Positions 3,868 through 23,823 of a stretch of DNA of 64,000 nucleotides are shown here, piece after piece. The position numbers and the translations under genes were made by a program. How positions within the stretch are numbered: the first letter of the stretch is position 1; the number at the start of each line of letters is the position of its first letter. The notes below the pieces were generated by a model. The model was given only the letters and a program-made list of their open reading frames with translations. It searched no databases and was not told where the DNA came from. Source of the DNA: Nitrospira sp. SB0662_bin_26 (GTDB taxonomy: Bacteria; Nitrospirota; Nitrospiria; Nitrospirales; UBA8639); the NCBI GenBank assembly GCA_009840285.1, contig VXOF01000009.1, positions 3-64,002 on the forward strand, given 5' to 3'.

Positions 3868-4517
3868 CCGACCCCACCTCCCGTTTCTGCGCCCCCCGCT
3901 CGATGCAGGCCCCGCACCGTCTCGGCCAGCCGGTAAATGGTGTGCGCCGTAATATCCCGGAACGACAACATGGCATCTTCATGGCCGGCCTGAGCACAGA
4001 GGGCCATCGTATAGCAAGAGGTCCCCCCTCGGACGATTTTCAGTGTGAGATTGGCTTGGTGACAATGAACTCCGACAAATAACCCGACATCGATCCGATT
4101 ATGCCAGATGGTTAAGTTGGGATGATTGGGGTTAATCTCCACCTCCGGATTAATCTTGGGGTATTTGGGCCGGTAATCAGGCATAGGGATCAACATCGCC
4201 CGTTGGTGGGGCATCACGCAGGACTTAATCGTCTCATAGAGATGGCGTACCGCCCTGGCTTTTTGAGCGGCAGCCTCATTCCATGCCCAGAGCACCAAGG
4301 GGCCAGGAAAGATCGTCGGCACCTTGGCCAGCAGGAACTGTCGCGCCGCCTCTTCAAAGGCCGTCTCCTGGGATATCAGATGCCCATAAAGAACGGCCTG
4401 CCCGGGGTCCGGAAGCCGTACTCCCATATTCGCGGCAGCCGGAGGAAGGAAATGCTCGGGGCCTGGACGCACTTCATAGGATGCTTTCATTAATCCACTC
4501 CGCTCCTGGTCATCCAT
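3864..4517 (-). CDS. CdhB-like protein (CO dehydrogenase/acetyl-CoA synthase epsilon-subunit fold; also the epsilon-like subunit of 5-subunit 2-oxoacid:ferredoxin oxidoreductases)
   Basis: PTIFPGPLVLWAW and ...HEDAMLSFRDI resemble the CdhB motifs PLFVVG and ...NATMSFGNL (recalled). The start chosen is MDDQE, because it overlaps the stop of the upstream small ORF (ATGGATGA). Confidence 0.45.
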   Translation of the reverse strand: MDDQERSGLMKASYEVRPGPEHFLPPAAANMGVRLPDPGQAVLYGHLISQETAFEEAARQFLLAKVPTIFPGPLVLWAWNEAAAQKARAVRHLYETIKSCVMPHQRAMLIPMPDYRPKYPKINPEVEINPNHPNLTIWHNRIDVGLFVGVHCHQANLTLKIVRGGTSCYTMALCAQAGHEDAMLSFRDITAHTIYRLAETVRGLHRAGGAETGGGVG

Positions 4518-4665
4518 ACGATTGACATGGCTCGGTGATGCCATCAATCACGTCTCTCACCTGGGCCACACCACAACGCTCCGACACGACAACTTCAATA
4601 TGATACTCCAGTTGACGGCGGATTATTCTTTCCAGCCCCGCAGGTCGCAAGACTTCTTCAATCAA
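4510..4665 (-). CDS. Small 51-aa ORF (TTG start) between parA and the CdhB-like gene
   Basis: GGAGGAA RBS about 9 nt upstream of the TTG. Its stop overlaps the start of the next gene. Absent from the supplied ORF track, probably because it is short. Function unknown. Confidence 0.3.
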   Translation of the reverse strand: MIEEVLRPAGLERIIRRQLEYHIEVVVSERCGVAQVRDVIDGITEPCQSYG

Positions 4666-7558: not shown

Positions 7559-8253
7559 GGTTGACTCGCTCCTAGGAACGCATTGAAATTGGATGCCACT
7601 CGAAACGACAACTCGCGCCAGGCCGAGGCAAAATTCTCGGCTGGCACGACTGGTCGCGTGCCGTTGTCCCACTCAAGCAGGGTTGATCGTCGGTACTCGA
7701 TCCCCAATTGCTCGACGATGTTTACCTCGTAACGCCACATCCAATCGATCAAATCCAAGGTCAACGTTGCGCACGCATTTCGCTGGGATTCAGTCGGCGC
7801 GTTCAACTTCGGGAGATCGGTATCGGACCAGGGTGGACAATCCAGCGTCGCATGTGTTGTATAGCGAGGTCGAAACTCGGAGCGAGGCAGGAAGACGCCA
7901 CCCCACTGACCATCTCCGTAGAACACACCAAACCCACGCAGCACAACACATCGTCTCCGCGGCATCGCCAAGGCATACACGCTCGCACATTCTTTGCGAT
8001 CGGTGGGCGGCTCAATGCGGTCAAAGCCGATCTCGAGCAGCCAGTTGCCTTCCGGTCGCACAATGTCGCGACCCCAGCACCACACCTGTTGGCTGAGCAA
8101 ACTCACCGCTTGTTCAAGGAGTTCACCTTCAGCATGTTCGTGATCATTCACTTGAAGTGCTACCAACATCTCAGTCAGCCTCGGGAGTCGCAATCGATGC
8201 GATGTTTGCCAACAGCCATGCGGAGGCAGCAAACAACTGCAACCAATCCCCAC
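7555..8253 (-). CDS. Hypothetical protein (start uncertain; alternative Met at 8169)
   Basis: Long open frame on the operon strand, coupled to the downstream gene. No motif recognised. Confidence 0.5.
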   Translation of the reverse strand: MGIGCSCLLPPHGCWQTSHRLRLPRLTEMLVALQVNDHEHAEGELLEQAVSLLSQQVWCWGRDIVRPEGNWLLEIGFDRIEPPTDRKECASVYALAMPRRRCVVLRGFGVFYGDGQWGGVFLPRSEFRPRYTTHATLDCPPWSDTDLPKLNAPTESQRNACATLTLDLIDWMWRYEVNIVEQLGIEYRRSTLLEWDNGTRPVVPAENFASAWRELSFRVASNFNAFLGASQP

Positions 8254-8457: not shown

Positions 8458-9588
8458 TCAACATACGCACTCCTCCCCACAGCAGGAGAGGTCATCGAGG
8501 TACATGCCCCACTTGCGGTAATTCTCCAACTCTTCAGCCGGCAGCCCCAGGGACCCGGCAATCGCCTTGGCAACCACGGCGAATCGCTGTCGATACTTGT
8601 AGATAAAGCAAAAGGAATGGTTAGCGTGACGCACGGCGGGCCCGCACAGAAACAGGCCGGGCACAATTGTCGACTCATCGTGCTCGCTCATGAGCGGAAA
8701 GCCGTCGTCGCGTCGCTCGAACAAATCTGCGACCAGCTTGTGACTTCCTTCAAATCCACCCGCCCAGAGTGGCGGAACGCGAGTTTGAAACCGGCGTCCG
8801 TCCTGTGCCGTGACTTCATACGTGGCGTCCACGCGGGTGACAGAGGCGATTGGCGTTTCCGGAAACAACTCCACATACTCCTCAAACCAATCTTCTCGCA
8901 TCCGTTCGAGCGAATACGTGGACAGTGCGACACTGGGATCGGAACTTTGGTCTTTCCATGGACAACCTTTATCGAACAACTGTACCCGTTTGTCGCGATA
9001 CGCCAGGTGGTAGGCCGCGTCGACGCCACTCTCGTAGCCACCGACAATGATGAAGTCGTCTCCGTCAAGTTCTTCATAACTGGCAATTGTTGCCGTGTGT
9101 CGACAGAGTTCGCTGCCGACAAACCCATTCAGACGTGGGTATTGGAATTCACCGGCCGCCCAAATGACATGCCTGGCTCGCAAGGCCTCGTCGGCTGTAT
9201 CGATGCGAAAAACGTCGCCAACTTTTGTTATCCGCGTCACGCTGGTCTTCTCGCGTATCGGCAACTCGAAAAACTTCGCGACTCCTCGCAAATGCGACGC
9301 GTATTCCTCGCCCGTCGGATGCTCAACCTCCAAGCTGAACGCGGGCGAAACACCAATCGCGATCGAGTTCAAATCGAGCATGCCAATCGAATTGGTCGGA
9401 AACGAGGGGGTGATGAATCGAGTCTCGGACGGCCATGAGGCAAACGATGATCCGACCGTTCGTCGCTCGAGCACGATAAAGTTCTCAATCCCCGCATGCC
9501 TGAGGGCTATCGCAACCCCCACACCCGCGGCACCGCCACCGACGACTACGACATCGTAAGTCTCGACGTTACTTGCAATCGTCATCAA
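8458..9588 (-). CDS. FAD/NAD(P)-binding oxidoreductase (flavin-monooxygenase/pyridine-nucleotide-disulfide-like) with a Cys-rich C-terminal tail
   Basis: N-terminal dinucleotide fold YDVVVVGGGAAGVGVAIAL...LERR and a second GG motif FIIVGGYESGVDAA. The C-terminus is ...LDDLSCCGEECVC. Confidence 0.8.
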   Translation of the reverse strand: MMTIASNVETYDVVVVGGGAAGVGVAIALRHAGIENFIVLERRTVGSSFASWPSETRFITPSFPTNSIGMLDLNSIAIGVSPAFSLEVEHPTGEEYASHLRGVAKFFELPIREKTSVTRITKVGDVFRIDTADEALRARHVIWAAGEFQYPRLNGFVGSELCRHTATIASYEELDGDDFIIVGGYESGVDAAYHLAYRDKRVQLFDKGCPWKDQSSDPSVALSTYSLERMREDWFEEYVELFPETPIASVTRVDATYEVTAQDGRRFQTRVPPLWAGGFEGSHKLVADLFERRDDGFPLMSEHDESTIVPGLFLCGPAVRHANHSFCFIYKYRQRFAVVAKAIAGSLGLPAEELENYRKWGMYLDDLSCCGEECVC

Positions 9589-9766
9589 GCGCTCCCCTCG
9601 GTAACTTCACTGCGACAACAACCTCACGGACACCCGTAACGGCGGTTCAGCAGGTGAGCGTGAACCGACACGATTCCGCCCGGCATGCGTGAGCACGGCC
9701 TGCCCTTCCTGCGGATAAGCAAACTCGGCGAACATTTCACAAAGCTGTCCCGCGCGCATCATGCCC

Positions 9767-9925
9767 TTACCGCTTTTCTTTGTGGACGGCATGCTTCCGG
9801 CAGTACGAACAATATTTTTTCAGTTCGATCCGGTCGGGATCGTTTTTCTTGTTTTTGGAGGTCCAATAGACCGATTTGCCCGGCGTCTCACATCCGGTGC
9901 AGGCAATGGCAATCGTGACACGCAT
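9767..9925 (-). CDS. rpmG: 50S ribosomal protein L33 (zinc-ribbon C+ form)
   Basis: 52-aa ORF found by hand: [52 protein letters not shown]. Both CxxC pairs are present. AGGAG RBS 8 nt upstream. Lies immediately after rpmB. Confidence 0.85.
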
Positions 9926-9946
9926 ACGCTAAACTCCTGAGGCCCG

Positions 9947-10183
9947 TTAGATGTGTTCACCGGCCGCCCGCATGTCGGCAACGACGCGGGCCAGCCCCTT
10001 TTTATCGATAATTTTCATGCCGTGGGTTGAAACCGACAGGGTAATCCAACGATTCTCTTCCTGCAGAAAATAACGTTTCCGATGCAGATTCGGAAAAAAC
10101 CGCCGCTTGGTTTTGTTATTGGCATGACTCACACGATGACCGGACATAGGCCGCTTTCCGGTGACCTGACAACGTTGTCCCAT
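9947..10183 (-). CDS. rpmB: 50S ribosomal protein L28
   Basis: [34 protein letters not shown]...IDKKGL matches L28. AAGGAGG 7 nt upstream of ATG 10183. Confidence 0.9.
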
Positions 10184-10336
10184 CAACACACCTCCTTAGC
10201 ATCGCGTCAACCATTTAAATGTGAACATTCCCTTTTCTCATGACTCCTGCTGGGAGGCTCCTGCCGTGGCCATGTAGCCTGCCTGTTTTCCCGGCCTGGT
10301 CTTCTAAACGGATCGACAAACGAAGTCCACAACTCC

Positions 10337-11638
<1,302 letters not shown>

Positions 11639-11651
11639 CCGTTATCCTGTC

Positions 11652-12920
11652 CTAGTCTGAGCCTCCGTCGTTTTCTCGTGCATTAGCATGGGAGATCGCG
11701 CGGGCGAAGGGATCGTCGAACCGCCGCCAGACCGACTCCCCCTCCAGTATCTCAGAAGGCGTCAACAAACAGCGGTGAAGTTGACGACGCCAGGACGACA
11801 CATCCAATCGATAGCCGATCCAGCCGAACGCCTGCCGTCGGTCGCCGAACTCGACCGACCAATGCTCTTTCAGTTGTGTTTGGAACTCATTATCAGCCGG
11901 CCACTGAGCCCGGGGAGTGGCCACCCACCAGTCGCCCACACACTCGAAATGCCGCACTCCCGCCGTCTGTTCCAAGGAAAAGCACCGTTCCGGTTGTGAC
12001 GCAATCCAGAAATGACCTTGGCACCGCAGAATTCCCGGCCAATCGGACTCGATCAGCTCCCATAGCCGCTGCGGGTGGAAGGGACGCGTAGCTCGAAAGG
12101 CCCCCATCGCCCAATAGGACGATCGAATCGTCGGCATCGGCGCTCCCTGGATCAGCTTCGCCCAGCCTGGTTGAAAACTGATCGGCATCGAGGCAGGACT
12201 ACGCTCGTTGACAATCTGTCCCACCACATCCAACCCCTCCGCTATCGATAGAATCGTGGCTTCCGGGTTCAACGTCTCGAGCAAGGACCGGAGACGAGCC
12301 TGCTTACCCAATGACAGCCCTTCGGTTTTGGATATCACCAGTACCGTGGCATACTCCACCTGCTCTACCACCAATTCCGACACCATCCGTCCATCGTCCG
12401 TCCCACAACTCACGCCTCGGGTCTGTAAATCGTCTTCAGAATGCAGATCGTCCCATAACGTCCGGCCGTCGACGACCGTGACCAAGTGATCAAGCCACGC
12501 CTTCGATGCCAAGGGTTCGCGGTTCTCCCAGGCGTCGTTGAACACTTCGGCGACCAAGACGGGCTCGACCAGGCCCGAGCACTCGAGCAGCACCCGATCA
12601 AACCGCTGCATGTCGGCAATCGCCGTGATGGCGCTCGCCAAACTGTCGCGCAAGGAACACCCGACACACCGTTGAATCAACTCGGCCAAGACTTCACCGA
12701 GACGGAAGACCTCGATCCCCAGAGATCGACAGAAGTCCGCATCCAATCCTGCGTCGCTACGGTCATGGACCAGCACGGCCAACCGACCGGACGCCCAGCC
12801 GGCGACAACTTTCTGCACCAGCGTGCTCTTCCCGGCTCCGACAAAACCACAGACCGCGGTGACCGGAAGCCGCGTGATCTCGGCTGGACGATAGCCTTTG
12901 GGATGGATACCGGGGTTCAT
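11652..12920 (-). CDS. Divergent COG0523-family paralogue (degenerate CxCC and NKxD motifs)
   Basis: GFVGAGKST is present. The metal motif reads RCVGCSLRD and G4 reads ISKTEG. ECSGLVEP replaces ESTGxxEP. The C-terminal half is collinear with the neighbour (RPFHPQRLW). AAGGAGG lies before ATG 12920. Confidence 0.8.
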   Translation of the reverse strand: MNPGIHPKGYRPAEITRLPVTAVCGFVGAGKSTLVQKVVAGWASGRLAVLVHDRSDAGLDADFCRSLGIEVFRLGEVLAELIQRCVGCSLRDSLASAITAIADMQRFDRVLLECSGLVEPVLVAEVFNDAWENREPLASKAWLDHLVTVVDGRTLWDDLHSEDDLQTRGVSCGTDDGRMVSELVVEQVEYATVLVISKTEGLSLGKQARLRSLLETLNPEATILSIAEGLDVVGQIVNERSPASMPISFQPGWAKLIQGAPMPTIRSSYWAMGAFRATRPFHPQRLWELIESDWPGILRCQGHFWIASQPERCFSLEQTAGVRHFECVGDWWVATPRAQWPADNEFQTQLKEHWSVEFGDRRQAFGWIGYRLDVSSWRRQLHRCLLTPSEILEGESVWRRFDDPFARAISHANARENDGGSD

Positions 12921-12952
12921 AGCACCTCCTTGTTCTTGAGCACGAGCACTCA

Positions 12953-13022
12953 CTACCAGCTCGATTTCCGCACACCAGGGATCCGACCCTGGAGTACGAG
13001 CAGACGAAAATCGATCCGCGTA
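12953..13022 (-). pseudogene. Ghost of an rpsN 3' end (about 70% DNA identity to 13316..13385)
   Basis: My hand alignment gives about 48/68 identical positions to the last ~22 codons of the adjacent S14 gene. The frame is disrupted. Confidence 0.35.
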
Positions 13023-13069
13023 CACTTACCTCCCTACTTCGAGATTGGGGGCTCTAGGCCCTGACTTCA

Positions 13070-13285
13070 TCACTTTTCGGACTGCCGACCGAACGGTAAC
13101 AGCGCCATGTGTCGCGCTCGCTTGATCGCTCGCGCGATCTCCCGCTGCCGATGTAGACTATTGCCCGTCATTCGTCGAGGCAGGATGCGCCCGTTTTCCG
13201 TTATGAACCTCCGCAGCCACTCCGCATTTTTCCAATCCACCGGTGTCGTATCGTCGATCACGCGACGGCGTCGTCCTTCAAGCAT
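13070..13285 (-). CDS. rpsR: 30S ribosomal protein S18 (Cys-less form)
   Basis: ...[42 protein letters not shown] is the S18 core. Contains no cysteine. Confidence 0.85.
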
Positions 13286-13315
13286 GCTCGTTTCTCCATA
13301 TACAATGAATTGCGC

Positions 13316-13621
13316 CTACCAACTCGACTTTCTCACTCCGGGAATACCCCCTCGTAATGCCAACAAACGAAAATCGATGCGGGACATGCCGAATCGTCTC
13401 AGGAATCCACGGGTCCGGCCTGAAATCAGACATCGGTTTCTCACTCGGCTTGGGCTGGCATTGCGGGGCAGCGCCTGCAGCCCCCGTTGCGCCTCCATCC
13501 GCTCTTCCAACGAAGACCCAGGATTTCGGATAACTTCCTTTAAAATGGCTCGTTGTTGGGCGTACTGCTTCACCACCTCTTTTCGTTTTTCATTTTTAAT
13601 GATGCAACTTTTTTTGGCCAT
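13316..13621 (-). CDS. rpsN: 30S ribosomal protein S14, long 101-aa C- (non-zinc) form
   Basis: [15 protein letters not shown]...[41 protein letters not shown]. Lacks the CxxC-x-CxxC of the short Zn-ribbon S14. Confidence 0.9.
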
Positions 13622-13717
13622 AGGACCTTCCTTTCATCAAGGTGTGAAGCTTTCTCCATATCCTCTTTTTGGATAAACGGTTGTTTTGGGTAATTCGTAC
13701 CACAATCTCGACCAACC

Positions 13718-13732
13718 ATTCGTTCAATGAAT
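13718..13732. promoter_or_regulatory. 7-1-7 inverted repeat ATTCGTT-C-AATGAAT (candidate Fur-family/Zur operator) about 100 nt upstream of rpsN
   Basis: Near-perfect palindrome (6/7 per arm) nested between CCAACCA (13712-13718) and TGGTTGG (13741-13747). Lies in an unusually AT-rich leader. Confidence 0.3.
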
Positions 13733-13900
13733 ACGCTAGTTGGTTGGAAATTAAATACAACTGGGCAGCGAGAGAAACGAGTTTATGGGGTGAAAATGAT
13801 TTGAAACGCCAACTGAAAGCTAGCTCACCAGCGATAGTTTCTGCCGTGTATACTTATACGCGGCTTATACGCGGACACTTCGCTTTCATGAATAACTTTT

Positions 13901-13960
13901 CAATGAACATCCAAAACTACTAAATGAAAGGTATGTTTTCTGGAGACGAGTGTATAACAA
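13901..13960. repeat. 60-bp AT-rich repeat, copy B (about 280 nt upstream of rpsN)
   Basis: caatgaacatccaaaactactaaatgaaaggtatgttttctggagacgagtgtataacaa. Direct repeat of 7179..7238. Confidence 0.85.
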
Positions 13961-14322
13961 AGAGGAAAGGCCGAACGAAGGAATATCGGAATGTGGACGT
14001 CACCAACGGAGCAGGTGATGACGGATCGTGTGGGACTGGCTGCGACTGACTCGTGTTTGCTGAGTATTGGTTAAGGTGACAAGTTACGACCTGCCAGGCA
14101 GTTGGGCGAGCTTACTGCTGGCATCGACCTTCACTAATGCGCCGCGCCCCAAGCGAAGAAACCGCCTGGGGCGCGGCTTGGCCTCTCGTGTGGATACCTG
14201 TGACATTCGCGGTTCGAAAGGATGGGGCTTGGGGTGCACACGAACCCGTGCAGAATGCCCACCAAATCGATAACGTCGTCTATGCGATGCGGAAGGCTCT
14301 CGTGATCGGATGCAGTGCATGC

Positions 14323-14550
14323 TCAGCAGCACGAGCAGCTACTGCCCTGTGATTTGGCGCATTTCGTGCCCTTGAGCATCACATTGCCGCCTCCGAAAAG
14401 CCGGCGGACGGGCGTCCCTGGTGGTGTGTCACCCGGATGTTGGTTTGCCCGAGCACACAGTTCCCCCCAAGTAGCCAGCGTTTCTTTGATGCTGTGCCGA
14501 ACGGTCAGCGTCGTATCATTGGCGTCGCAATGATAGTCGTATGTAATCAT
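14323..14550 (-). CDS. FmdB-like zinc-ribbon protein with eroded Cys ligands and a Cys-rich tail
   Basis: MITYDYHCDANDTTLTVRHSIKE... mimics the FmdB N-terminus MPxYEYxCxxCG, but only one Cys of each pair remains. The tail is ...KCAKSQGSSCSCC. GGAGG lies 7 nt upstream and TATAAT at 14574-14579. Confidence 0.55.
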   Translation of the reverse strand: MITYDYHCDANDTTLTVRHSIKETLATWGELCARANQHPGDTPPGTPVRRLFGGGNVMLKGTKCAKSQGSSCSCC

Positions 14551-14580
14551 GTGTGAACCTCCATACATGTGTGATTATAG

Positions 14581-14605
14581 CAAAAGATGGGCCGGTCAGC
14601 CCATC
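14581..14605 (-). terminator. Rho-independent-type hairpin (GATGGGC-n6-GCCCATC + TTTTG) with no obvious upstream gene
   Basis: 7-bp GC stem followed by a T-run when read on the minus strand. Lies immediately upstream of the TATAAT of the 14323..14550 gene. Confidence 0.4.
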
Positions 14606-14896
14606 TTCGCAGGAGGCAATTCCACATATCAGGCCACACGGTTGGCAAATTGACCAAACACGGGGCCTTTGGTAGGTTGCCGCGTACTCAAAAGAGCCTT
14701 TCATAATTCCTGTTTCCACGCTCAGGTTTACAGTAGAGCGTTATCATACCATGTCAGGAAGCCGGCAGCAGTATTCTCCTTTCAGATCAGTCGAACCGCT
14801 GGAAGCACTCGGCGACTTGCGTCTGTGGTGGCTCCCCGTACAGGACTACTCCCTTCGCCCCGTGCCCGCGGCCAGCGGGAGCGGGTGAAAAAAAGC

Positions 14897-14928
14897 TTGA
14901 CTCTGTACTGAGGTACGGAGTGTATACT
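14897..14928 (+). promoter_or_regulatory. MerR-type promoter: TTGACT, 20-bp spacer with dyad CTCTGTAC/GTACGGAG, then TATACT
   Basis: Over-long 20-bp spacer carrying a 7/8 inverted repeat, the hallmark of MerR-family activated promoters. Lies directly upstream of the merR-like gene. Confidence 0.65.
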
Positions 14929-14934
14929 TCGGAT

Positions 14935-15369
14935 ATGGAAAAGACCGATAAAGAACTGATGACGATTGGAACCTTAGCCAAGGCAGCCGGGGTTGGGGTA
15001 GAGACGGTCCGCTTTTATCAGAGGAAGGGTCTTCTGGAAATGCCATTTCGAACGTCAGGTTTTCGAAAGTATTCGGAATCTGATGTGCGGACAATCAAGT
15101 TTGTCAAGAGAGTTCAGGGGCTTGGATTCTCTCTCAAAGACGCTCAAGATCTCCTGGACCTTGCTCTTTGTTCCCGGGAAACACGACCTTTTATTGCAAA
15201 GACTTGTCACGAGAAGATCGATCAAATTGAAAAGAAGATAGCCGACTTGACCAGGATGGTGGGAATGCTTCACGAGTTTTCCCTGATCTGTGGAAGTGAA
15301 GCGTCGAATGATTCTGAATGCAGGCTCCTGGATTGCTTTGAAAACAATTGGGAGTGCTGCGAAAAATGA
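14935..15369 (+). CDS. MerR-family heavy-metal-responsive transcriptional regulator
   Basis: MTIGTLAKAAGVGVETVRFYQRKGLL HTH, a coiled-coil dimerisation helix, and a Cys-rich C-terminal loop ...LICGSEASNDSECRLLDCFENNWECCEK. The alternative start ATG 14959 gives the canonical N-terminus. Confidence 0.85.
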   Translation: MEKTDKELMTIGTLAKAAGVGVETVRFYQRKGLLEMPFRTSGFRKYSESDVRTIKFVKRVQGLGFSLKDAQDLLDLALCSRETRPFIAKTCHEKIDQIEKKIADLTRMVGMLHEFSLICGSEASNDSECRLLDCFENNWECCEK

Positions 15370-15382
15370 GGAGGAAAACGCA

Positions 15383-15538
15383 ATGAAAGACTCCTGTGGA
15401 TGCTGCAAAGATGGCAAGTGTGCCTGCAAGACAACGACGTGTGGCTGCTGTTGTGGAACTGAAGTTTGTCGCTGTGACGCGTCATGCGTATGTGGTGATT
15501 GCTGTAGCGGGTGCTGCAAGTCCTCGAGCCGTGTTTAA
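15383..15538 (+). CDS. Metallothionein-like Cys-rich peptide (51 aa, 17 Cys)
   Basis: MKDSCGCCKDGKCACKTTTCGCCCGTEVCRCDASCVCGDCCSGCCKSSSRV. AGGAGG RBS lies upstream. Starts 13 nt after the merR stop. Has CxC/CC/CCC motifs with no His or aromatic residues. Confidence 0.65.
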   Translation: MKDSCGCCKDGKCACKTTTCGCCCGTEVCRCDASCVCGDCCSGCCKSSSRV

Positions 15539-15571
15539 CGGCAACTGAGTTTCAATCTGACGTGGAGGCCA

Positions 15572-16438
15572 TTACTTCGCGGGCATGGGACCGACTAAGA
15601 GCTGGGGATCTATTCGCTGGGTAAAGAGGTTCATCCGCCAATCCAAATGCGGACCCGTCGCACGGCCCGATTCACCCAATTCAGCGATGACGTCTCCTTG
15701 CGTAATATGATCTCCTTTCATTACCAAAATTTTGTTCAGGTGAAGAAACGTGGAGGAAAGACCATGACCATGGTCAAGAATCAAGGTTGCCCCCGAAAAA
15801 AACATATTCGGCTGGGCTAGGGTGACCACTCCACCCGCCGGGGCTTTGACTGGTGTTCCAATGGCCCCTGAAATGTCTACACCAAAATGTGGCCGCCGGG
15901 GCTCACCGTTCAGGATGCGTTGACTACCATAGACTCCGGTTATTTTTCCGATGACAGGCCAGATAAAACCATCCTCAAAATCCGTACGAGGGGCATCCAG
16001 CTTCCTGGCAGCTTTAGCTAGCCGGGCGTCTTCTTGAATTCTGGCAAGATCCCGTTTATGAGGATTGACCTTTCGAGGGGATAGCCCGTTAATGCGCTGA
16101 ATCTTATATTTCCTTTTCTTAACAGACAGAGCACGATGTTCTTTCTTCCCGTTGGGCCAGGTAATTGCGAGCTTCACCGTCGGGGATGCATCTCTCCCAA
16201 ACCCCACCAAAAACATTCCTTGGGGAGATACGCGGACTTTCCGTCCATCTACCCATACTTTGGCCCCCGGAGCAGTCTTGCCTTGAACCAGACCGCCCTG
16301 AACCATCGGGCCCTCCAATGAAAGACTCTCTTGTCCTACCCCTGCCGCCTGAACAGAAACCGCTCCCATCCATCCCAAAGCCAATAAGGACAGAACCCAC
16401 ACCATAGTTTTCAATGACTGTATTTCCATCTTGCCCAC
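15572..16438 (-). CDS. M23/LytM-family zinc metallo-endopeptidase (secreted)
   Basis: Signal peptide, then HFGVDISGAIGTPVKAPAGGVV and ...LDHGHGLSSTFLHL..., the HxxxD and HxH motifs of M23. Confidence 0.88.
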   Translation of the reverse strand: MGKMEIQSLKTMVWVLSLLALGWMGAVSVQAAGVGQESLSLEGPMVQGGLVQGKTAPGAKVWVDGRKVRVSPQGMFLVGFGRDASPTVKLAITWPNGKKEHRALSVKKRKYKIQRINGLSPRKVNPHKRDLARIQEDARLAKAARKLDAPRTDFEDGFIWPVIGKITGVYGSQRILNGEPRRPHFGVDISGAIGTPVKAPAGGVVTLAQPNMFFSGATLILDHGHGLSSTFLHLNKILVMKGDHITQGDVIAELGESGRATGPHLDWRMNLFTQRIDPQLLVGPMPAK

Positions 16439-16591
16439 ACGCGTTTACCTCAGATATCGTTCCGTTCCCTTATCTCCGATATTCTACTGATCTTGTCTGT
16501 TAAGAACCCCATGGGTGCAATGCTCGCTTCCAGGCTAGTGAGGCGTTCTGGAAGAGGGCGAGACGGGGTCAAGCAGGGATCGGAAATGGGG

Positions 16592-16906
16592 TCAGGGCTT
16601 GCCATGTGAATGCCCTCCATGCGACCGGCAATCATGTCCACAGCCCTGTATGCCCAACCCGCCACCGTAAATGTTCTTGAGCGTGGGGGGAGGAGCGGTC
16701 GAGCCCGGTGGAGGATCCGATGACGCCCGGCTTTGGGCCATCACGTCAGCCCCTGCCGAAAACACCGACGGGATCTTCTCCAACGGTGCCCCGCATTCGC
16801 GACAGGCCGTCACCGGGGCATCTTGCATGTTCTGCCAAAAGGCAAACCGCTTGGGACAAAACAGCGATTTCAAACAATATTCGGCTTGATATTCATAGAT
16901 GGGCAT
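16592..16906 (-). CDS. FmdB-like zinc-ribbon protein with a His/Cys-rich C-terminal tail
   Basis: MPIYEYQAEYC...TACRECGAP has the FmdB architecture, with the first CxxC altered to Cx5C. The tail is ...GCGHDCRSHGGHSHGKP. Starts 6 nt after the pyrC stop. Confidence 0.6.
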   Translation of the reverse strand: MPIYEYQAEYCLKSLFCPKRFAFWQNMQDAPVTACRECGAPLEKIPSVFSAGADVMAQSRASSDPPPGSTAPPPTLKNIYGGGLGIQGCGHDCRSHGGHSHGKP

Positions 16907-16912
16907 ACATCC

Positions 16913-18214
16913 TCATTCATCTTGCGTTCTTTGAAACACCGTCACCCCGCCGACCAAGGTCCGGACAACCGCACCGCGAAGTCGCCACCCGGCAAACGGG
17001 CTGTTTCGCCCCTTCGACCGAAACCGTTCCGGATCAACCGTCCATTCCATCCTTGGATCGATCAACACCACATCAGCCTGCGCACCGGCGGCCAACGTCC
17101 CGCACGATAGGCCAAGCAAACGGGCCGGGGCTGACGTCAGTTTTTCTATCATGGATTCCAGGGGCAACAGGCCCTCTTCTACCAGCCGAAGAGAAAGCCC
17201 TAAGGCCGTTTCAAGCCCGACTATTCCAAATGGAGCTTTGGACAATCCCCACTGTTTCTCATAGACGGCATGCGGAGCATGATCGGTGGCTATGGCATCA
17301 ATGGTGCCATCCTGCAACCCGTCGCGGACCGCCTGGACATCCGCATTTCGCCGGAGGGGAGGATTCATTTTCGCCAATGCGCCCTGCTCCCGCACCGCCT
17401 CTTCGGTCAGCATGAAATGATGGGGGCACGCTTCCGCAGTCACCCGAATTCCGGCGGCCTTGGCCGTTCGGACGGCCTCCACGGCATTCGCCGTACTGAT
17501 ATGCGCGATATGCAGATGACATTCCGTTGCCTTGGACAACGCGATATCCCGTTCCACCATCTTGGATTCCGCTTCAGAAGGGATGCCTCGGACTCCCAAG
17601 AGACGGGAAAGGGGCCCCTCGGCCATACATCCGCACCCGGCCAAAGACAGATCTTCGCAATGATCGATCACCGGCAGATCCAAGACCCGAGCCTCCAACA
17701 TCGCCTCTCGCATGACGGCGTGCTCCATCACGGGACGGCCATCATCCGAGACAGCCATACATCCGGCCCCACGTAAGCCCCGAAGGTCTGCCGACTCTTT
17801 CCCTTGTAATCCCTTGGTAATGGCCCCGATTGGATGTACGCGAACCAGCCCGGTAGCCTGCACACGGTCGTGGATGGTCTGGGTCACAGCAGGGGAATCA
17901 TTAACGGGATTGGTATTGGGCATGCAACAGACGGTCGTAAACCCACCGGCAGCGGCTGCAGCAGTTCCGGTCTCGATGGTTTCTTTGTACTCATAACCCG
18001 GTTCCCGTAAATGGACGTGCAGATCCACCAAACCTGGCGTCACAATCAACCCGTCGGCCTTGAAGTGGTCGGCATGCGAGGGAAGAGCCGTCCGGGGAGG
18101 CGTCACCGCAGCGATACGCCCTTGGCTGATCCAGACATCCCCCACACCATTCCACCGTCCAGGGTCGATGACCCACCCTCCTGAGATGATGAATAAGTCG
18201 GCAGGATGGTTCAG
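16913..18214 (-). CDS. pyrC: Dihydroorotase (start uncertain: CTG 18214 or TTG 18289)
   Basis: GLVDLHVHLREPGYEYKETIETGTAAAAAGGFTTVCCMPNTNP and downstream amidohydrolase motifs. There is no ATG/GTG between the ZIP stop and the conserved LFIISGGWVIDP N-terminus. Confidence 0.85.
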   Translation of the reverse strand: MNHPADLFIISGGWVIDPGRWNGVGDVWISQGRIAAVTPPRTALPSHADHFKADGLIVTPGLVDLHVHLREPGYEYKETIETGTAAAAAGGFTTVCCMPNTNPVNDSPAVTQTIHDRVQATGLVRVHPIGAITKGLQGKESADLRGLRGAGCMAVSDDGRPVMEHAVMREAMLEARVLDLPVIDHCEDLSLAGCGCMAEGPLSRLLGVRGIPSEAESKMVERDIALSKATECHLHIAHISTANAVEAVRTAKAAGIRVTAEACPHHFMLTEEAVREQGALAKMNPPLRRNADVQAVRDGLQDGTIDAIATDHAPHAVYEKQWGLSKAPFGIVGLETALGLSLRLVEEGLLPLESMIEKLTSAPARLLGLSCGTLAAGAQADVVLIDPRMEWTVDPERFRSKGRNSPFAGWRLRGAVVRTLVGGVTVFQRTQDE

Positions 18215-18222
18215 GGATCCCC

Positions 18223-19017
18223 CTAGTGCGGGAGCATGGTCAGCATGCCGATGGTCAGCATGCCGGTCAGCATCATGGCAAACGGCCAAGCCCCACTGGC
18301 CGCCCCGTGTCGGCCATGTAAGTCGGGAACCAGATCGGCAAGACCGATATACAAAAAACTGGCGGCGGCCAACGTCAGGGCATAGGGAACGATCGGCTCC
18401 GCATAGGCCAAGCCTCCAAACGCCAACACCACCCCTGCGAGGGTCGCCATACCAGACAGGGTATTGGCCCAAAACGCCTGCCACTGGGAAAATCCGCTCG
18501 ATAGCAGAATGGTGAAGTCACTCAACTCCTGCGGAATCTCATGAACCAGAACCGCCAACGTCGTGACCAGACCCAGGGCAGGGGAGACGACACAGGACAC
18601 GCCGATGGCAATACCGTCGGCAAAGTTATGAACGGCATCGCCGACCAGGATCAATGTTCCGGCTTCCCGGCGAACCATCGAGCCCTTCGCATGCCCGTGA
18701 GGCTTGAGCTCAACAGCCTCCCCGTGCGCATGGCGCCAGATCACCATCCATTCCAGAATAAAGAACAGGACCAGCCCCGCCAACAAAGCGATGCCCGCCT
18801 CATTAATCGAAATGCCTTCGAGTGCCTCGGGAAGCAGCCCGATGGTCGCGGTCGCCAGCATCGTGCCGGTCGCAAACCCCAGCAGATTCGGCATCATCCA
18901 TTGCCGCCACCCATCCGGAATAAACAGAACCAGACCGGCAGGCAATAAGGCGCCCAAGCTGCCCAGTAACCCCATCAAGATGACAAACAGCCATGTGGAT
19001 TCTTGGGGCAGGCTCAC
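18223..19017 (-). CDS. zupT: ZIP-family divalent metal (zinc) transporter, ZupT-like
   Basis: Multi-TM protein with a His-rich loop HGEAVELKPHGHAKG, plus the VHNFADGIAIG and LVHEIPQELSDF signature helices. GTG start. Confidence 0.9.
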   Translation of the reverse strand: MSLPQESTWLFVILMGLLGSLGALLPAGLVLFIPDGWRQWMMPNLLGFATGTMLATATIGLLPEALEGISINEAGIALLAGLVLFFILEWMVIWRHAHGEAVELKPHGHAKGSMVRREAGTLILVGDAVHNFADGIAIGVSCVVSPALGLVTTLAVLVHEIPQELSDFTILLSSGFSQWQAFWANTLSGMATLAGVVLAFGGLAYAEPIVPYALTLAAASFLYIGLADLVPDLHGRHGAASGAWPFAMMLTGMLTIGMLTMLPH

Positions 19018-19080
19018 GCGTTTGGTCCGATCCGGTCAGGGCCACAGACCTGACCATGATACATCGAAACCCCCTCGGTG

Positions 19081-19659
19081 TTAGCCATGTCCATGGACCG
19101 GTGGCCGTTCCTCTTTGACACGTGGCAATAATTCGGTGAGGTTGCAAGGGCGATGATCTATGTCGAGCTGGGGAAGGATGATCTGTTCCATTCCCAAGCG
19201 GCAGGCTCCGGTCGACCCCGGCAGGAGAAACACAATGGTGTCGCCGCACACCCCGGCATCCGCCCGGGATTGAATGGTAGAGGTCCGGATTTCACGGTAG
19301 CTCAGCCAGCGAAATAATTCGCCGAAGCCCGGAATCGGCTTGGAAAACAGCGAACGGACGGCCTCCGGCGTCACATCACGTTGGGTCACGCCGGTCCCGC
19401 CCGTCACGATCACGAATTCAATCGCCGGGTCCGCCACCCAGGCGGCGATCGTTTCCCGAATGGTCTCATATTCATCCGGACATAGTTTGCGGTCGGCCAC
19501 GCGATGCCCCGCGCCCATCAATCGATCGACAATGGTGGATCCACTCGTATCCGTTTCGATCGTTCTGGAATCCGAGACCGTCAAGACCGCCACCGCCACG
19601 CTGAGGCCGGCTCTCTTAAGGTCTGCTGTTGCCGTGGTTGCACCGTCTGCCTGACTCAT
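19081..19659 (-). CDS. moaB: Molybdenum cofactor biosynthesis protein B (MoaB/MogA family)
   Basis: VLTVSDSR...DTSG...[18 protein letters not shown]...[23 protein letters not shown]......F.LPGSTGAC is collinear with E. coli MoaB. Confidence 0.88.
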
Positions 19660-20351
19660 GCCATCACCTCATGGTTCGATAAGATAATCATCCGCGTGCC
19701 GACTCCGCCGTTCTCCCCGAATGACACACGCCGGACGGCCGGAATCCAGATCCCGGCCACCTCCACAAATTCGTTGACATAACTTTCCATCCCGATCACC
19801 GCCTGACCATCCAGCGAAAAGTAGGTCATCACGTAATGACTGGACGCTTGCCGGCCATCCGGGGCGGTGTCGTACCGTTCTATGGTATTCACCCGGCGTT
19901 CGGTCATGGGGGTGATGCGCCCGATTTGCGTATATTGCCGGTTCTTGAGGCGGTACCAGGACTCGAGTCGTCCTCCGGTCAACAGCACACGGCGCCCCCG
20001 GGGATGAGCACAACCGGCATCCTCTTCGGAATCGAAGGATAAGATGTAGCGGCCGTCACCATCCTCAAACGGCGAATAGGCCAAATGCATGCCCTGCGTC
20101 CACAACCGTTCACGCACCCATTCCTGTAACGCCGGATCGGTGCCCGGCAAGTCCACGGTGGTTTCTTTTCGAGGCACCAACTGAACCGTTCCCCGGATAA
20201 TCGTGCCGTTGTCGTTGAGGGTGACGTCGGCTCGATACCCGCCAAACTCTTTGGGCCACTTGTACATCCGGGCATGGGCCTCCCGAACCAGACGTCGCGC
20301 CTCGGGGTCGTCGGTCAGCTTCAGGCCGGTTGCCATTGTTGCGTCAGTCAC
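19656..20351 (-). CDS. Conserved hypothetical protein (resembles the DUF3386 family by recall)
   Basis: [32 protein letters not shown]... The start overlaps the upstream stop (GTGA) and the stop overlaps the moaB start. Confidence 0.55.
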
Positions 20352-20668
20352 GCCGTTTCCCGCCTCTCCGATACATCGTGGCTTCCATCATCATGATGAT
20401 GTTCCCCATCCTGCGCCAGGGCTTGCACATCCGGTTGCGTGACCTCCTCCGCCGTTTTATGAATCTTGAACTGGGTCGTCTTTCCCGGCCCTTCCAAAAA
20501 CGCAATGACCGTTTCAATGGGCGGACAACCTGGCTCCCGGCACTCCAATTCGGTCACCATGACCGTGGTCTCTTCCGGCAAAGACCAGGCCGAACGAGCC
20601 CAGGATTTGATGCGATCCGCCTGATCCGGATTGATGCGGGGGCGCCCTCCTCCGAATAAATTCATCAT
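20348..20668 (-). CDS. Small 106-aa protein with an ELECREPGCPPIETV motif and an acidic His-rich tail
   Basis: Coupled at both ends (ATGATGA with the WD40 stop). C-terminal ...QDGEHHHDDGSHD. No family recognised. Confidence 0.55.
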   Translation of the reverse strand: MMNLFGGGRPRINPDQADRIKSWARSAWSLPEETTVMVTELECREPGCPPIETVIAFLEGPGKTTQFKIHKTAEEVTQPDVQALAQDGEHHHDDGSHDVSERRETA

Positions 20669-21732
20669 TTCTCTCCCACGCCTTCCACGACAAAGAGCGC
20701 CACCGTTCCGTCATCGGCGCCCACCGCCAGGCAGACATCGGTCGGACTCCAGGCCACACAGGACAATCCTCGCGACACACGCAGTTCCTGACTCACCCTG
20801 GGCTTCGCCTTCCCTGGCTCCCACAAGCAGAGCAACCCGTCTTCTCCCACCGTCGCCACCACCCGCTGACGAGGGTGACAGGCAATTGCTTGAATCCATC
20901 CCAGATGGCCGCTCAAAAGCCGGCCACTGGATCCTTCGAATTTTTTGGCCGACCACGCCACCAAATCAGGACCGGCTGCTGTCCATAAAAATTCTCCATA
21001 AGGATCGAAGACCACATGCCCGACCTTGCAGGGATAACCGGCCATATGCCAGTTCTGCCCGGTCGAGAGACTCCATAAATGGACCGACCCGTCCAAATTT
21101 CCCGCGGCCAGATACTGCCCGTCCGAACTGATTGAGAACGACAGGAGTGCCCCATCATAGGGAAACGTATTCACGGGAGAATCCATCCCGACCTGCCACA
21201 GCGTAACTCCTCCGAAACAGGAGGAAAAAATTTGGCCCGGATACCCCTTTCGCCAACAAAGATCGGATATAGAACTCTTATGATCAGAGGTCTCCCATTC
21301 CACGGAGCACCCGCCCGACTCCGACCACTTCAGGATCTGCAGGGTTTTTCCCGCGGTCATCGCCAACCGTTCGCCGCCGGACTCCCACGCCAGATGCTCC
21401 ACCCAGCCCTTTCCATCTTCAACCGGAACCACGGCACGCTCTTCCCCGGAACCGACGTCCCACACACGCCCCACTCCGTCTTCCCCGGCGGTTGCGAGAA
21501 TTTTTCCTCCGGGATGCCATCCCTCCGCCAGTACCGCGCCTTGATGGTTCGTGTTACGGAAGACACACTCCTGGGATCCCACATGCCACACCGCGACCTG
21601 GCCGCTCGCATCCGCAACTGCCAATCGGCTGCCGTCCGGCGAAAACATGACGGCATGGATGTATTCATCCAATTGAAACGTCCCGATCGACTGCAATTGA
21701 ATTTTGGCCCGAGGCCGTACTAAACGAGGCAT
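20665..21732 (-). CDS. WD40-repeat beta-propeller protein
   Basis: Repeated ...GH...V..V.FSPDG..LA....DG.V..W... units across the whole ORF. The MPRLVRP start overlaps the COG0523 stop by 13 nt. Confidence 0.8.
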
Positions 21733-22691
21733 GTCCGAAACCCTTCGACGAGCCGGTCCCGATCGAGGTTGCGCCCTATGAACACCAACTGATTCCCCCT
21801 GGTTTCTTTGGCCCTCCATGGCCGATCAGGACGCCCGTCGAACAACATATGCACGCCTTGAAATACAAAACGTTCATCCCGTCCCTTCACATCCAAAATA
21901 CCCTTCATGCGAAAAATGTCGGTGCCCATGCCCGAGAGCACGTCCCGAAGCCAATCATTCGTCCGAGCCTCATCCACCTGCCCTGGTTCGGCAATCGACA
22001 CGGAGTAGACCGACGGATCATGCTCGTGGGCTTCCTCGCCTAAAAAGTTCGGGTCGATTTCCAGTTTCCGGCCCAGATCAAAAGCCCCCACATTCAACAG
22101 GCGTTCGATGTCCAACCGGGCATCGCGGGTCCGGTAGATTTTGGTCATGGGATTGATGGCCCGCACGCGGGCCTCCAGTCGCTCCACCTCCCCTTCGTCC
22201 ACCAGATCGATTTTATTCAGGAGAATCACGTCCGCAAATGCGATCTGCTCCTTGGCTTCGGGACTGGTGTCCAGATGCTCCCAGATATGCTTGGCATCCA
22301 CCACCGTCACAATGGCATCCAGCATCAACCGGCGCTTCATATCATCGTCTACAAAAAAGGTTTGTGCGACGGGTGCCGGATCGGCCAGCCCCGTGGTCTC
22401 GATGACCATATAGTCGAACCGCTCTTTCCGCTTGAGCAAATTGGAAATTATCCGGATCAGGTCTCCGCGAACGGTACAACAGATGCACCCATTGTTCATT
22501 TCAAAGATTTCTTCCTCCGCCCCCACCACCAACTGATTATCAATTCCGACTTCACCGAATTCATTCACAATCACCGCCACCCGTTTCCCATGCTCGGTGG
22601 TCAGAATACGATTCAACAAGGTTGTCTTGCCCGCACCAAGAAATCCCGTCAACACCGTGACCGGGACTTGAGCCTGCTCTTCGACTTTCAT
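21720..22691 (-). CDS. COG0523-family G3E GTPase (short YciC/ZigA/YjiA-like zinc metallochaperone type)
   Basis: [40 protein letters not shown]4 LLNKIDLV, and a His-containing linker GEEAHEHD. The start taken is MKVEEQ. Confidence 0.9.
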
Positions 22692-23637: not shown

Positions 23638-23738
23638 GGGGCTGGGCCCTGTGCAGCAGAATCTTGTGAACCCCGCCAGGTCCGGAAGGAAGCAACGGTA
23701 AGCAAGCGAGTCTGTGTGCTACAGGATCACCCGGCCCC
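23638..23738 (+). ncRNA. ffs: Signal recognition particle RNA (small 4.5S-type, ffs)
   Basis: CCAGGTCCGGAAGGAAGCAACGGTAAGC matches the conserved SRP domain IV (E. coli CAGGUCCGGAAGGAAGCAGCC). The 5' GGGGCTGGGCC pairs with the 3' CCCGGCCCC. Sits in the classic position upstream of dnaX. Confidence 0.8.
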
Positions 23739-23823
23739 GCTTGTGACGATCTTCATGTCGTGACCACGTGGCGGTGCCTCAAGAGATGACGTGCGGCGCT
23801 AGGTGGAGCCGAAGGAACGAGTG

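Follow-up and report, generated by a model that had tools for sequence, protein, structure and literature searches.

The 64-kb window analysed here, a 64,000-nucleotide stretch of contig VXOF01000009.1 from Nitrospira sp. SB0662_bin_26, carries a short plus-strand module in which the gene for a MerR-clade regulator is followed directly by an open reading frame (ORF) for a small cysteine-rich peptide. The module comprises the following features.

14897-14902, plus strand: -35 hexamer TTGACT, read directly; (c)TTGACT stands at the same place in nearly all peptide-linked loci
14903-14922, plus strand: spacer of 20 nt, read directly
14923-14928, plus strand: -10 hexamer TATACT, 20 bp from the -35 hexamer
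14900-14921, plus strand: predicted MerR operator within the 20-bp spacer, the imperfect dyad ACTCTGTAC-TGAG-GTACGGAGT
14935-15369, plus strand: merR-clade regulator gene, 144 aa, ATG at 14935, stop codon at 15367-15369, with Pfam MerR domains
15369-15374, plus strand: Shine-Dalgarno sequence AGGAGG for the peptide gene, within the 13-nt intergenic gap and overlapping the merR stop codon
15383-15538, plus strand: gene for a Cys-rich, metallothionein-like peptide of 51 aa with 17 Cys, ATG at 15383, stop codon at 15536-15538, uncalled by gene finders

The peptide, MKDSCGCCKDGKCACKTTTCGCCCGTEVCRCDASCVCGDCCSGCCKSSSRV, consists of 33% Cys with a 9 + 8 split of these residues; CxC, CC and CCC motifs are present, whereas His, Phe, Trp and Tyr are all absent. 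It thus displays the compositional hallmarks of a metallothionein, namely small size, a high content of Cys in CxC/CC motifs and the lack of His and aromatic residues. A 51-residue, 17-Cys ORF lying 13 nt past merR behind AGGAGG and free of His and aromatics had been described in the original prediction, an earlier reading of the same DNA, and is found exactly as quoted. The search for homologues proposed there was carried out at the DNA level: sequence around regulator homologues was fetched from GTDB species representatives, and its six frames were scanned for Cys-dense ORFs. This yielded a conserved family located directly 3′ of orthologous regulators, with about 35 loci from Nitrospirota, Planctomycetota, Pseudomonadota and Bdellovibrionota. 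Carriers are five Nitrospirales, the lineage of the window itself (regulator identity 90-96%), eight Planctomycetota, including Blastopirellula, Pirellulaceae and Rhodopirellula, the gammaproteobacteria Psychromonas arctica, Psychromonas aquatilis, Psychromonas sp. KJ10-2 and Agaribacter flavus, and metagenome-assembled genomes of Alteromonas, Pseudomonadota, Alcaligenaceae and Bacteriovorax; four further metagenome loci carry the module. The complete Psychromonas sp. KJ10-2 genome (L019, ~4441-4558; loci are denoted by L numbers) shows a frameshift in an A-run of the peptide ORF, which reflects either pseudogenization or an error in sequencing the homopolymer.

Two size forms exist in the family, a long one with 17 Cys and a short one with 14 Cys, in which an in-frame deletion has removed one internal GKCxCxxxxC segment. 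In an alignment of 20 homologues, no variation is seen at 14 Cys, one Asp and the initiator Met, nor at any of the 17 Cys within the long form, and an invariant CCC triplet together with a CGDCC motif is specific to the family. The peptide genes are under purifying selection, with a pairwise ratio of nonsynonymous to synonymous substitution rates (dN/dS) of 0.05-0.3. Between phyla, synonymous substitutions have reached saturation, and the choice of TGT or TGC varies with the host. Indels are in-frame, and non-Cys residues and spacing are also conserved across phyla. Every homologous peptide locus has a GGAG-type Shine-Dalgarno sequence 6-9 nt 5′ of the ATG. The distance from the merR stop codon to the peptide ATG ranges from -17 to +35 nt, with ATGA overlaps in 11 loci, an arrangement from which we conclude that the two genes are translationally coupled. 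Owing to the post-regulator position in four phyla, the retention of Cys, the dN/dS values, the in-frame indels and the coupling, we regard the peptide ORF as a genuine conserved gene. A GTG-started reading of 82 aa was rejected, as an in-frame stop four codons 5′ of the ATG in L011, L014 and L088-L090 rules out this extension and establishes the ATG as the start.

These data also bear on the notion that the ORF encodes no functional protein, but is a chance ORF, a cysteine-sensing attenuator upstream of other genes or the precursor of a ribosomally synthesized and post-translationally modified peptide (RiPP). It is skipped by gene callers, overlaps an antisense ORF of 154 aa (15055-15519) and recalls the polycysteine short ORFs of mycobacteria, which are Cys-responsive attenuators (bioRxiv 10.1101/834739). 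Nevertheless, with the cross-phylum conservation of non-Cys residues and spacing, the dN/dS values and the in-frame indels, this explanation is hardly credible. The antisense ORF was rejected, overlapping as it does the bona fide merR gene. The attenuator was discarded as well: the peptide gene is the last of the operon, and in most loci nothing follows it that could be attenuated. The same holds for the RiPP precursor, for which there is no adjacent radical S-adenosylmethionine (SAM) enzyme, MNIO or other maturase and no leader or signal peptide; Pfam domains of radical-SAM and MNIO maturases are missing among the neighbours in at least 15 loci, and the peptide starts with MKDSC.

The family is almost invisible in protein databases. 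The window peptide is not on record as a protein, and a word-index protein search came back empty. A single called homologue, P0121 of 49 aa, was retrieved by searches that covered 5.8 billion proteins, among them an exhaustive phmmer search of 1.84 billion representatives and a profile search, and exact look-up of 10 family members in a collection of 15 billion proteins found all of them absent, including those of the cultured Psychromonas and Agaribacter. The exact window regulator is present on two metagenome contigs, and on both of these the stretch 3′ of the regulator was left empty by gene callers. Because protein databases hold next to nothing of the family, six-frame scans of DNA loci were required, and these succeeded. 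In a scan of viral contigs the family was not found. Literature searches, some of them poorly targeted, retrieved no prior description of it, and its motif strings matched no paper of the collection searched.

Re-reading of the window confirmed base for base the promoter that had been proposed upstream of merR, consisting of TTGACT, a dyad-bearing spacer of 20 bp and TATACT. The arms of the dyad, ACTCTGTAC at 14900-14908 and GTACGGAGT at 14913-14921, are separated by TGAG and complementary at 8/9 positions; in the close relatives L003 and L005 the mismatch is absent and the dyad is perfect. Relatives with a TATAAT -10 hexamer have a spacer of 19 bp instead of 20 bp, and a dyad within an over-spaced promoter of either length is kept 5′ of all orthologous regulators. 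A sigma-70 scan with 16-18 bp spacing did not report the promoter at 14897-14928, as is expected for an over-spaced promoter of the MerR type. For comparison, the mer operator (merO) was checked against plasmid R100; the 42-mer CTTGACTCCGTACATGAGTACGGAAGTAAGGTTACGCTATCC sits between merR and merT in 2,209 plasmids. The half-sites of the window are those of Tn21/R100 merO, TCCGTAC-N4-GTACGGA, and the L003 operator is an exact TTGACTCCGTAC-N4-GTACGGAG. The identity of the half-sites and the 19-20 bp spacing conserved in relatives uphold the earlier view that this is an over-spaced MerR-type promoter. Within the 64 kb, the operator core CYGTAC-N4-GTACRG is present once where 0.13 copies would be expected, and in 64 fetched loci a single copy lies ~35 nt 5′ of the merR homologue. 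Since the merR ATG follows the -10 hexamer by only 5-7 nt in the Nitrospirales and Planctomycetota loci (6 nt in the window), the merR mRNA is probably leaderless, and the regulator cistron would be followed by a peptide cistron driven by its Shine-Dalgarno sequence.

The regulator matches MerR_1 (PF13411, 8e-17), MerR-DNA-bind (PF09278, 3e-11) and MerR (PF00376, 6.5e-9) above the Pfam cut-offs, and its best sequence match in the PDB is Tn501 MerR (5crl, 1e-23). An AlphaFold2 (AF2) model based on 32 homologues, with a predicted local distance difference test (pLDDT) score of 87.6, places the dimerisation helix at residues 84-119; in Foldseek searches, this model retrieved CadR, MerR, CueR and PbrR at template modelling (TM) scores of 0.7-0.8, those for CadR, MerR and CueR being 0.72-0.78, with Zn- and Cd-bound CadR on top. 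The proposed affiliation with the MerR-family metal sensors is therefore borne out by Pfam, sequence and predicted fold. It has to be corrected in one respect, as the protein is nearer to Hg-MerR than to ZntR, yet remains below every curated equivalog cut-off. The best NCBIfam model is the Hg-MerR equivalog TIGR02051 with 105.6 bits (cut-off 150.85), followed by NF010315 (94.4 versus 261), two ZntR models (88.8 of 143 and 78.7 of 167.95), CueR (79.3 of 147.4) and CadR/PbrR (61.2 of 151.45). The closest characterised relative is plasmid MerR with 42% identity, and canonical Hg-MerR at this level was all that a tblastn search of plasmids retrieved when the regulator served as query.

The predicted sensing site deviates from that of Hg-MerR. 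Equivalents of Tn21/Tn501 C117 and C126 are present as C119 and C129, but the loop between them has one residue more than that of Hg-type relatives. In an alignment of 90 sequences, the column of Tn21 C82 is occupied by R84, modelled as the first residue of the dimerisation helix, while the clade features a near-invariant Cys five residues earlier, at position 79 in the loop preceding this helix (CC in gammaproteobacteria). The C terminus, ...CGSEASNDSECRLLDCFENNWECCEK, is rich in Cys as previously noted; its tail LLDCFENxWxCC, which contributes C134, C141 and C142, is specific to peptide-linked regulators and absent in other clades. Compared with Hg-MerR and merO of Tn21 and Tn501, the window system thus shares the winged-helix fold, the near-identical recognition-helix region IG..AKAAGV.VET.RFYQRKGLL, the half-sites and the Cys pair of the C-terminal loop. 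Besides its moderate identity and its TIGR02051 score, it differs in the Arg at C82, the displaced Cys, the longer loop, the extra CFENxWxCC tail, the 20-bp instead of 19-bp spacer and the target, which is a Cys-rich peptide and not merTPA.

The properties of the regulator also permit an assessment of whether the peptide might use its thiols to buffer oxidants or electrophiles, under the control of a redox-sensing MerR relative akin to SoxR or NmlR. Cys-rich peptides scavenge oxidants, and redox/electrophile sensors of the MerR family are among the weak NCBIfam matches of the regulator. However, the metal-loop Cys pair is retained, the best matches are all metal sensors, the SoxR [2Fe-2S] motif CX2CXCX5C is absent from the regulator sequence and members of the sister clades stand at the front of ars, mer or P1B-ATPase operons, which makes a redox function very improbable.

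Peptide and regulator are inherited together. The peptide-linked regulators form one clade in a neighbour-joining tree, which was calculated without bootstrap and serves as a rough guide. To avoid ascertainment bias, metagenomes were searched with the peptide profile alone, and the regulator was found directly upstream in 8/8 confirmed matches. One of these, on an 86-kb contig (L091, 2078-2614, plus strand), is a natural in-frame MerR–peptide fusion of 178 aa, in which the regulator part ...WECC leads straight into QTGKCTC...CNCCCGTEACQC...; here, the WECC tail takes the place of the CxCC start of the peptide, and the peptide part lacks the C-terminal CGDCC..CC motif. Such close association would also be expected if the peptide chiefly served the sensor, as a metallochaperone or anti-activator that supplies metal to the site of the regulator or removes it from there and thereby fixes the set-point of the regulator. 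The one-to-one co-inheritance with a single regulator clade, the coupling including ATGA overlaps, the fusion and the resemblance of the clade-specific Cys tail to the peptide N terminus are in favour of such a role. Conversely, the fusion was seen once, on a single metagenome contig, 14-17 thiolates go well beyond the needs of a chaperone, and the strong separate Shine-Dalgarno sequence suggests that the peptide is made in excess over the leaderless regulator. We consider a sensor partner improbable as the chief function; it is compatible with sequestration and does not exclude it.

Sister clades of the regulator with the same type of operator have ars-like operons, HMA/MerP-like genes, P1B-ATPases, MerT or MerA downstream. 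In L024-L043 and L070-L075 (for example L030 4427, plus strand; L029 2530, plus strand; L035 642, plus strand), ars-like operons open with a MerR homologue of 40-48% identity that carries the same operator; these operons encode a low-molecular-weight (LMW) phosphatase-type ArsC, ArsM, an Acr3-like protein and VOC/glyoxalase proteins in Bacteriovoracaceae, Acidobacteriota and Nitrospirota, which suggests MerR-type arsenic sensors. The Sphingomonadales loci L054 (2949-3122, minus strand) and L082 (567-896, minus strand) contain a different tiny Cys-rich ORF of ~33-40 aa, ...CGC..G.C.CNPC.CKNC.C, that is divergent from the MerR homologue and starts at a mer-type operator; it may represent a second unannotated, MerR-controlled metallothionein-like family. 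In Ktedonobacter racemifer (L081 4429-4686, plus strand), an ORF of 85 aa with 11 Cys and a GDCCVFC sequence lies directly after the MerR homologue. Its GDCC echoes the CGDCC of the peptide family, a likeness at the level of the motif.

According to reviews and papers up to 2026, the recognised bacterial metallothioneins are SmtA/BmtA, including those of Pseudomonas, MymT and a few isolated cases. Twenty members of the peptide family matched no Pfam family at E≤10, including PF02069 of SmtA/BmtA; the peptide remained unmatched in NCBIfam at E≤0.1, and the family profile hit no PDB chain at E≤10. In a comparison by hhalign with MymT, a weak test, the probability was 1% with 5 aligned columns. 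The statement that the peptide is unlike SmtA/BmtA and MymT is accordingly supported. What it would share with these proteins is a predicted role as a small cytoplasmic Cys-rich metal sink under a metal-sensing regulator. It has, however, no sequence relation to them, no His or zinc-finger core and 33% Cys, and its regulator is a MerR activator and not a repressor of the ArsR/SmtB, Zur or CsoR type, whereas SmtA/BmtA are controlled by SmtB or Zur and MymT by RicR. Closer in composition are the eukaryotic metallothioneins (vertebrate and crustacean β/α proteins and fungal Cu-thioneins), with about one-third Cys, no His or aromatics and CxC/CC/CxxC motifs. The 9 + 8 Cys split recalls their two cluster domains, and a 15-residue CxCxxxCxCxxC patch aligns with the β-domain of human MT2A. 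As hhalign assigned a probability of only 4% to MT2A and no Pfam metallothionein family matched, we interpret this resemblance as convergent and not homologous.

Precedents for the regulatory arrangement come from MerR-controlled systems. In the mer operons of Bacillus and Staphylococcus, merR is the first gene and is co-transcribed with its target, as is predicted here, and the promoter PzntA has a 20-bp spacer like that of the window. PbrR controls PbrD of Cupriavidus, which sequesters Pb and is larger than the 51-aa peptide. The nearest regulatory precedent found is the activation of the small Cys-rich sequestration candidate Zrd by the MerR-family protein CadR in P. aeruginosa; Zrd belongs to the Zn-ribbon proteins and contains two mononuclear Cys4 sites (PMC12301328). 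ZntR, CadR and PbrR systems, including CadR-Zrd and PbrR-PbrD, thus resemble the module in that a MerR-type regulator would activate the gene of a cytoplasmic protein with a proposed role in metal sequestration. In contrast, neither target resembles the peptide, and in the window sensor and predicted sink are joined in one translationally coupled operon. We conclude that the peptide constitutes a new sequence family, metallothionein-like in character, and is accompanied by a MerR-clade sensor of its own.

The anatomy of the sequence, its conservation, the joint inheritance of the two genes, the purifying selection and the coupling are matters of observation. For metal binding, activation and the identity of the metal we draw on what is known of the protein families concerned, and with this analogy we consider it likely that the module is a self-contained, metal-inducible operon of sensor and sink. 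In this model, a dimer of the MerR-clade protein would occupy the dyad between the over-spaced -35 and -10 hexamers (19-20 bp) as a repressor or poised complex. A thiophilic metal would be bound by the Cys site of the regulator, formed by the C119 and C129 loop, the clade-specific C79 and possibly the C134/C141/C142 tail, and the metal-loaded protein would twist the DNA and activate transcription. The bicistronic transcript, predicted to start at or next to the merR ATG, would carry merR and the coupled peptide gene with its own Shine-Dalgarno sequence. The 17 thiolates of the peptide would then bind metal in the cytoplasm in metallothionein-like clusters, presumably ~5-6 divalent ions or more Cu(I), as judged from the Cys count. 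As free metal drops, the switch would reset, closing a negative feedback loop.

Clues to the metal are offered by the genomic surroundings of the module, which is the sole plus-strand unit inside a minus-strand block.

8458-22691, minus strand: zinc-economy island, the context that encloses the plus-strand module, assigned from Pfam and the gene list, with coordinates shifted by +4934 from L001

The island encodes a Pyr_redox_3 protein, the ribosomal proteins L33 and L28, two COG0523 proteins, S18, S14, an FmdB-like Zn ribbon (75 aa) and an M23 peptidase, and further a 104-aa Zn ribbon, a dihydroorotase (DHOase) paralogue, ZIP, MoCF, DUF3386 and WD40 proteins and a third COG0523 protein. CxxC pairs are lacking in its L28, S18 and S14, but L33 (9767-9925, minus strand) has two and is of the zinc-binding type, so the island is not uniformly composed of Cys-less ribosomal paralogues. 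The original prediction of a zinc-starvation island is hence supported by gene content, with three COG0523 genes, ZIP, the DHOase paralogue and Cys-less L28/S18/S14, but not by the Cys-containing L33, nor does it extend to gammaproteobacteria, where the module stands alone.

Linkage to COG0523 genes recurs in four lineages of Planctomycetota. A COG0523 gene, 52% identical to that of the window, lies directly upstream of the module in L009; Pyr_redox_3 and COG0523 genes adjoin it in L010, where the Pyr_redox_3 protein is 76% identical to the window copy (8458-9588); a COG0523 gene is found 2.4 kb downstream in L013 and a pair of WD40 and COG0523 genes 4-6 kb downstream in L095. By a rough estimate that was not computed, a few COG0523 genes per 6-8 Mb genome correspond to a chance of ~1% per locus, so that this recurrence does not look like chance, even if common descent of the block may account for some of it. 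The GC content of the module is 48% and that of merR 46%, as opposed to 57.7% in the window as a whole. In L005 and L007 the orientation of the module towards the island is reversed, and the window regulator nests among Planctomycetota sequences in the neighbour-joining tree. Taken together, these features suggest that the module was acquired horizontally; the 76% identity of Pyr_redox_3 to a Planctomycetaceae copy, the module GC content and the inversion are signs of block transfer from Planctomycetota.

Some further observations concern the vicinity of the module. A small FmdB-like zinc-ribbon protein is encoded divergently from it at 14323-14550 (minus strand) of the window and at 7628-7831 (minus strand) of L094, one Nitrospirales and one Planctomycetota locus; the two proteins are weakly similar and have Cys-rich C termini, CSCC in the window and GDCCRQSGCGCG in L094. 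The 104-aa FmdB-family Zn ribbon of the island (16592-16906, minus strand) ends in a His/Cys-rich tail, GCGHDCRSHGGHSHGKP. The DHOase ORF (16913-18484, minus strand) can be read as 523 aa, with an N-terminal extension of ~110 aa relative to the 410 aa called on the source contig. Upstream of S14-S18-COG0523, ~700 nt at 13622-14322 are poor in ORFs and contain an inverted repeat, CCAACCA...TGGTTGG; Rfam found nothing in this region. The sole Rfam match of the window is the bacterial small signal recognition particle (SRP) RNA at 23640-23739 (plus strand; RF00169, 65.8 bits).

Among the candidate effectors, Zn(II) with cross-reaction to Cd(II) would be the likeliest, in which case the module would buffer zinc shock in a cell geared for zinc scarcity. 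Zn/Cd is favoured owing to the island linkage, the 20-bp spacer and the lack of mer or cop genes, but the assignment is tentative and falls somewhat short of an even chance. Several observations weigh against it, or against the sensor-plus-sink model as such. No curated equivalog cut-off is reached, which leaves the specificity of the regulator unreadable from homology, and with R84 in place of the canonical third Cys the modelled sensing site is non-canonical. The operator and the nearest characterised relative, by sequence, point to Hg. Zinc-related neighbours are missing in gammaproteobacteria: the modules of Psychromonas, Agaribacter and L017 are located between unrelated housekeeping genes, from which we infer that the module is functionally self-sufficient. 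The linkage to zinc islands may moreover stem from one ancestral arrangement that spread horizontally and not from independent events. In three unrelated lineages, the module is adjoined by membrane proteins that have a MerC domain, long loops rich in Cys and His and an RRQC.CC motif at the C terminus (L008 4669-5538, plus strand; L012 4729-5334, plus strand; L021 708-1079, minus strand). The AF2 model of the peptide, calculated from the single sequence, is not usable (pLDDT 59.8), and translation of the peptide, its metal binding and induction of the promoter are all predictions from sequence.

Several of these points would fit the same sensor-plus-sink design tuned to Hg(II) or Cu(I), with the peptide as a reductase-free mercury sponge or a copper thionein. 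Mercury is suggested by the kinship with Hg-MerR (TIGR02051 as best model, 5crl at 1e-23, plasmid MerR at 42%), the Tn21 merO half-sites and the three MerC-family neighbours. Copper would agree with the residue at the N-terminal position of the helix, where R84 in place of Cys leaves a CueR-like two-Cys loop, and with the C-terminal CC tail of the regulator, which aligns with that of CueR; His-free, all-Cys peptides with CxC/CC motifs are typical of Cu-thioneins. Yet merA, merT, merP and copA are absent from all module loci, with merA, merT and merP lacking in the window too, the matches to TIGR02051 and CueR fall far short of the respective cut-offs, and COG0523 linkage recurs. In addition, the longer C119-C129 loop argues against Hg, and the near-invariant C79, a potential third ligand, against a pure +1 sensor. 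We therefore regard tuning to either of the two as rather unlikely overall; taken singly, Hg appears doubtful and Cu(I) somewhat more so. Another metal, including As(III) in view of the ars-linked sister clades, seems slightly less probable still.

Extending the sensor-plus-sink model, one can envisage an unrecognised metallothionein family of several phyla that never occurs without its own MerR-clade sensor. Peptide and Cys tail of the sensor would exchange metal directly, as the fusion suggests, and the sink would set the set-point of a self-buffering switch, which in Nitrospirales and Planctomycetota would be wired into a zinc-scarcity island as a protection against zinc shock. In its entirety, this picture is speculative and, on present evidence, unlikely to hold in every part.

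If the peptide is a metallothionein, it would add a new, non-homologous family to the two or three recognised in bacteria (SmtA/BmtA, MymT and isolated reports), one that extends across marine Nitrospirota, Planctomycetota, Gammaproteobacteria and Bdellovibrionota and is nearly invisible in protein databases. With just one called member, it escapes surveys of how the microbiomes of oceans and sponges maintain metal homeostasis. The compact sensor and its promoter with an operator known from mer are attractive for biosensors and bioremediation, and the cultured hosts Psychromonas arctica, Psychromonas aquatilis and Agaribacter flavus make the predictions directly testable. For the MerR family, a regulator clade whose third Cys is displaced and which bears an additional Cys tail provides a new test case for how metals are chosen.

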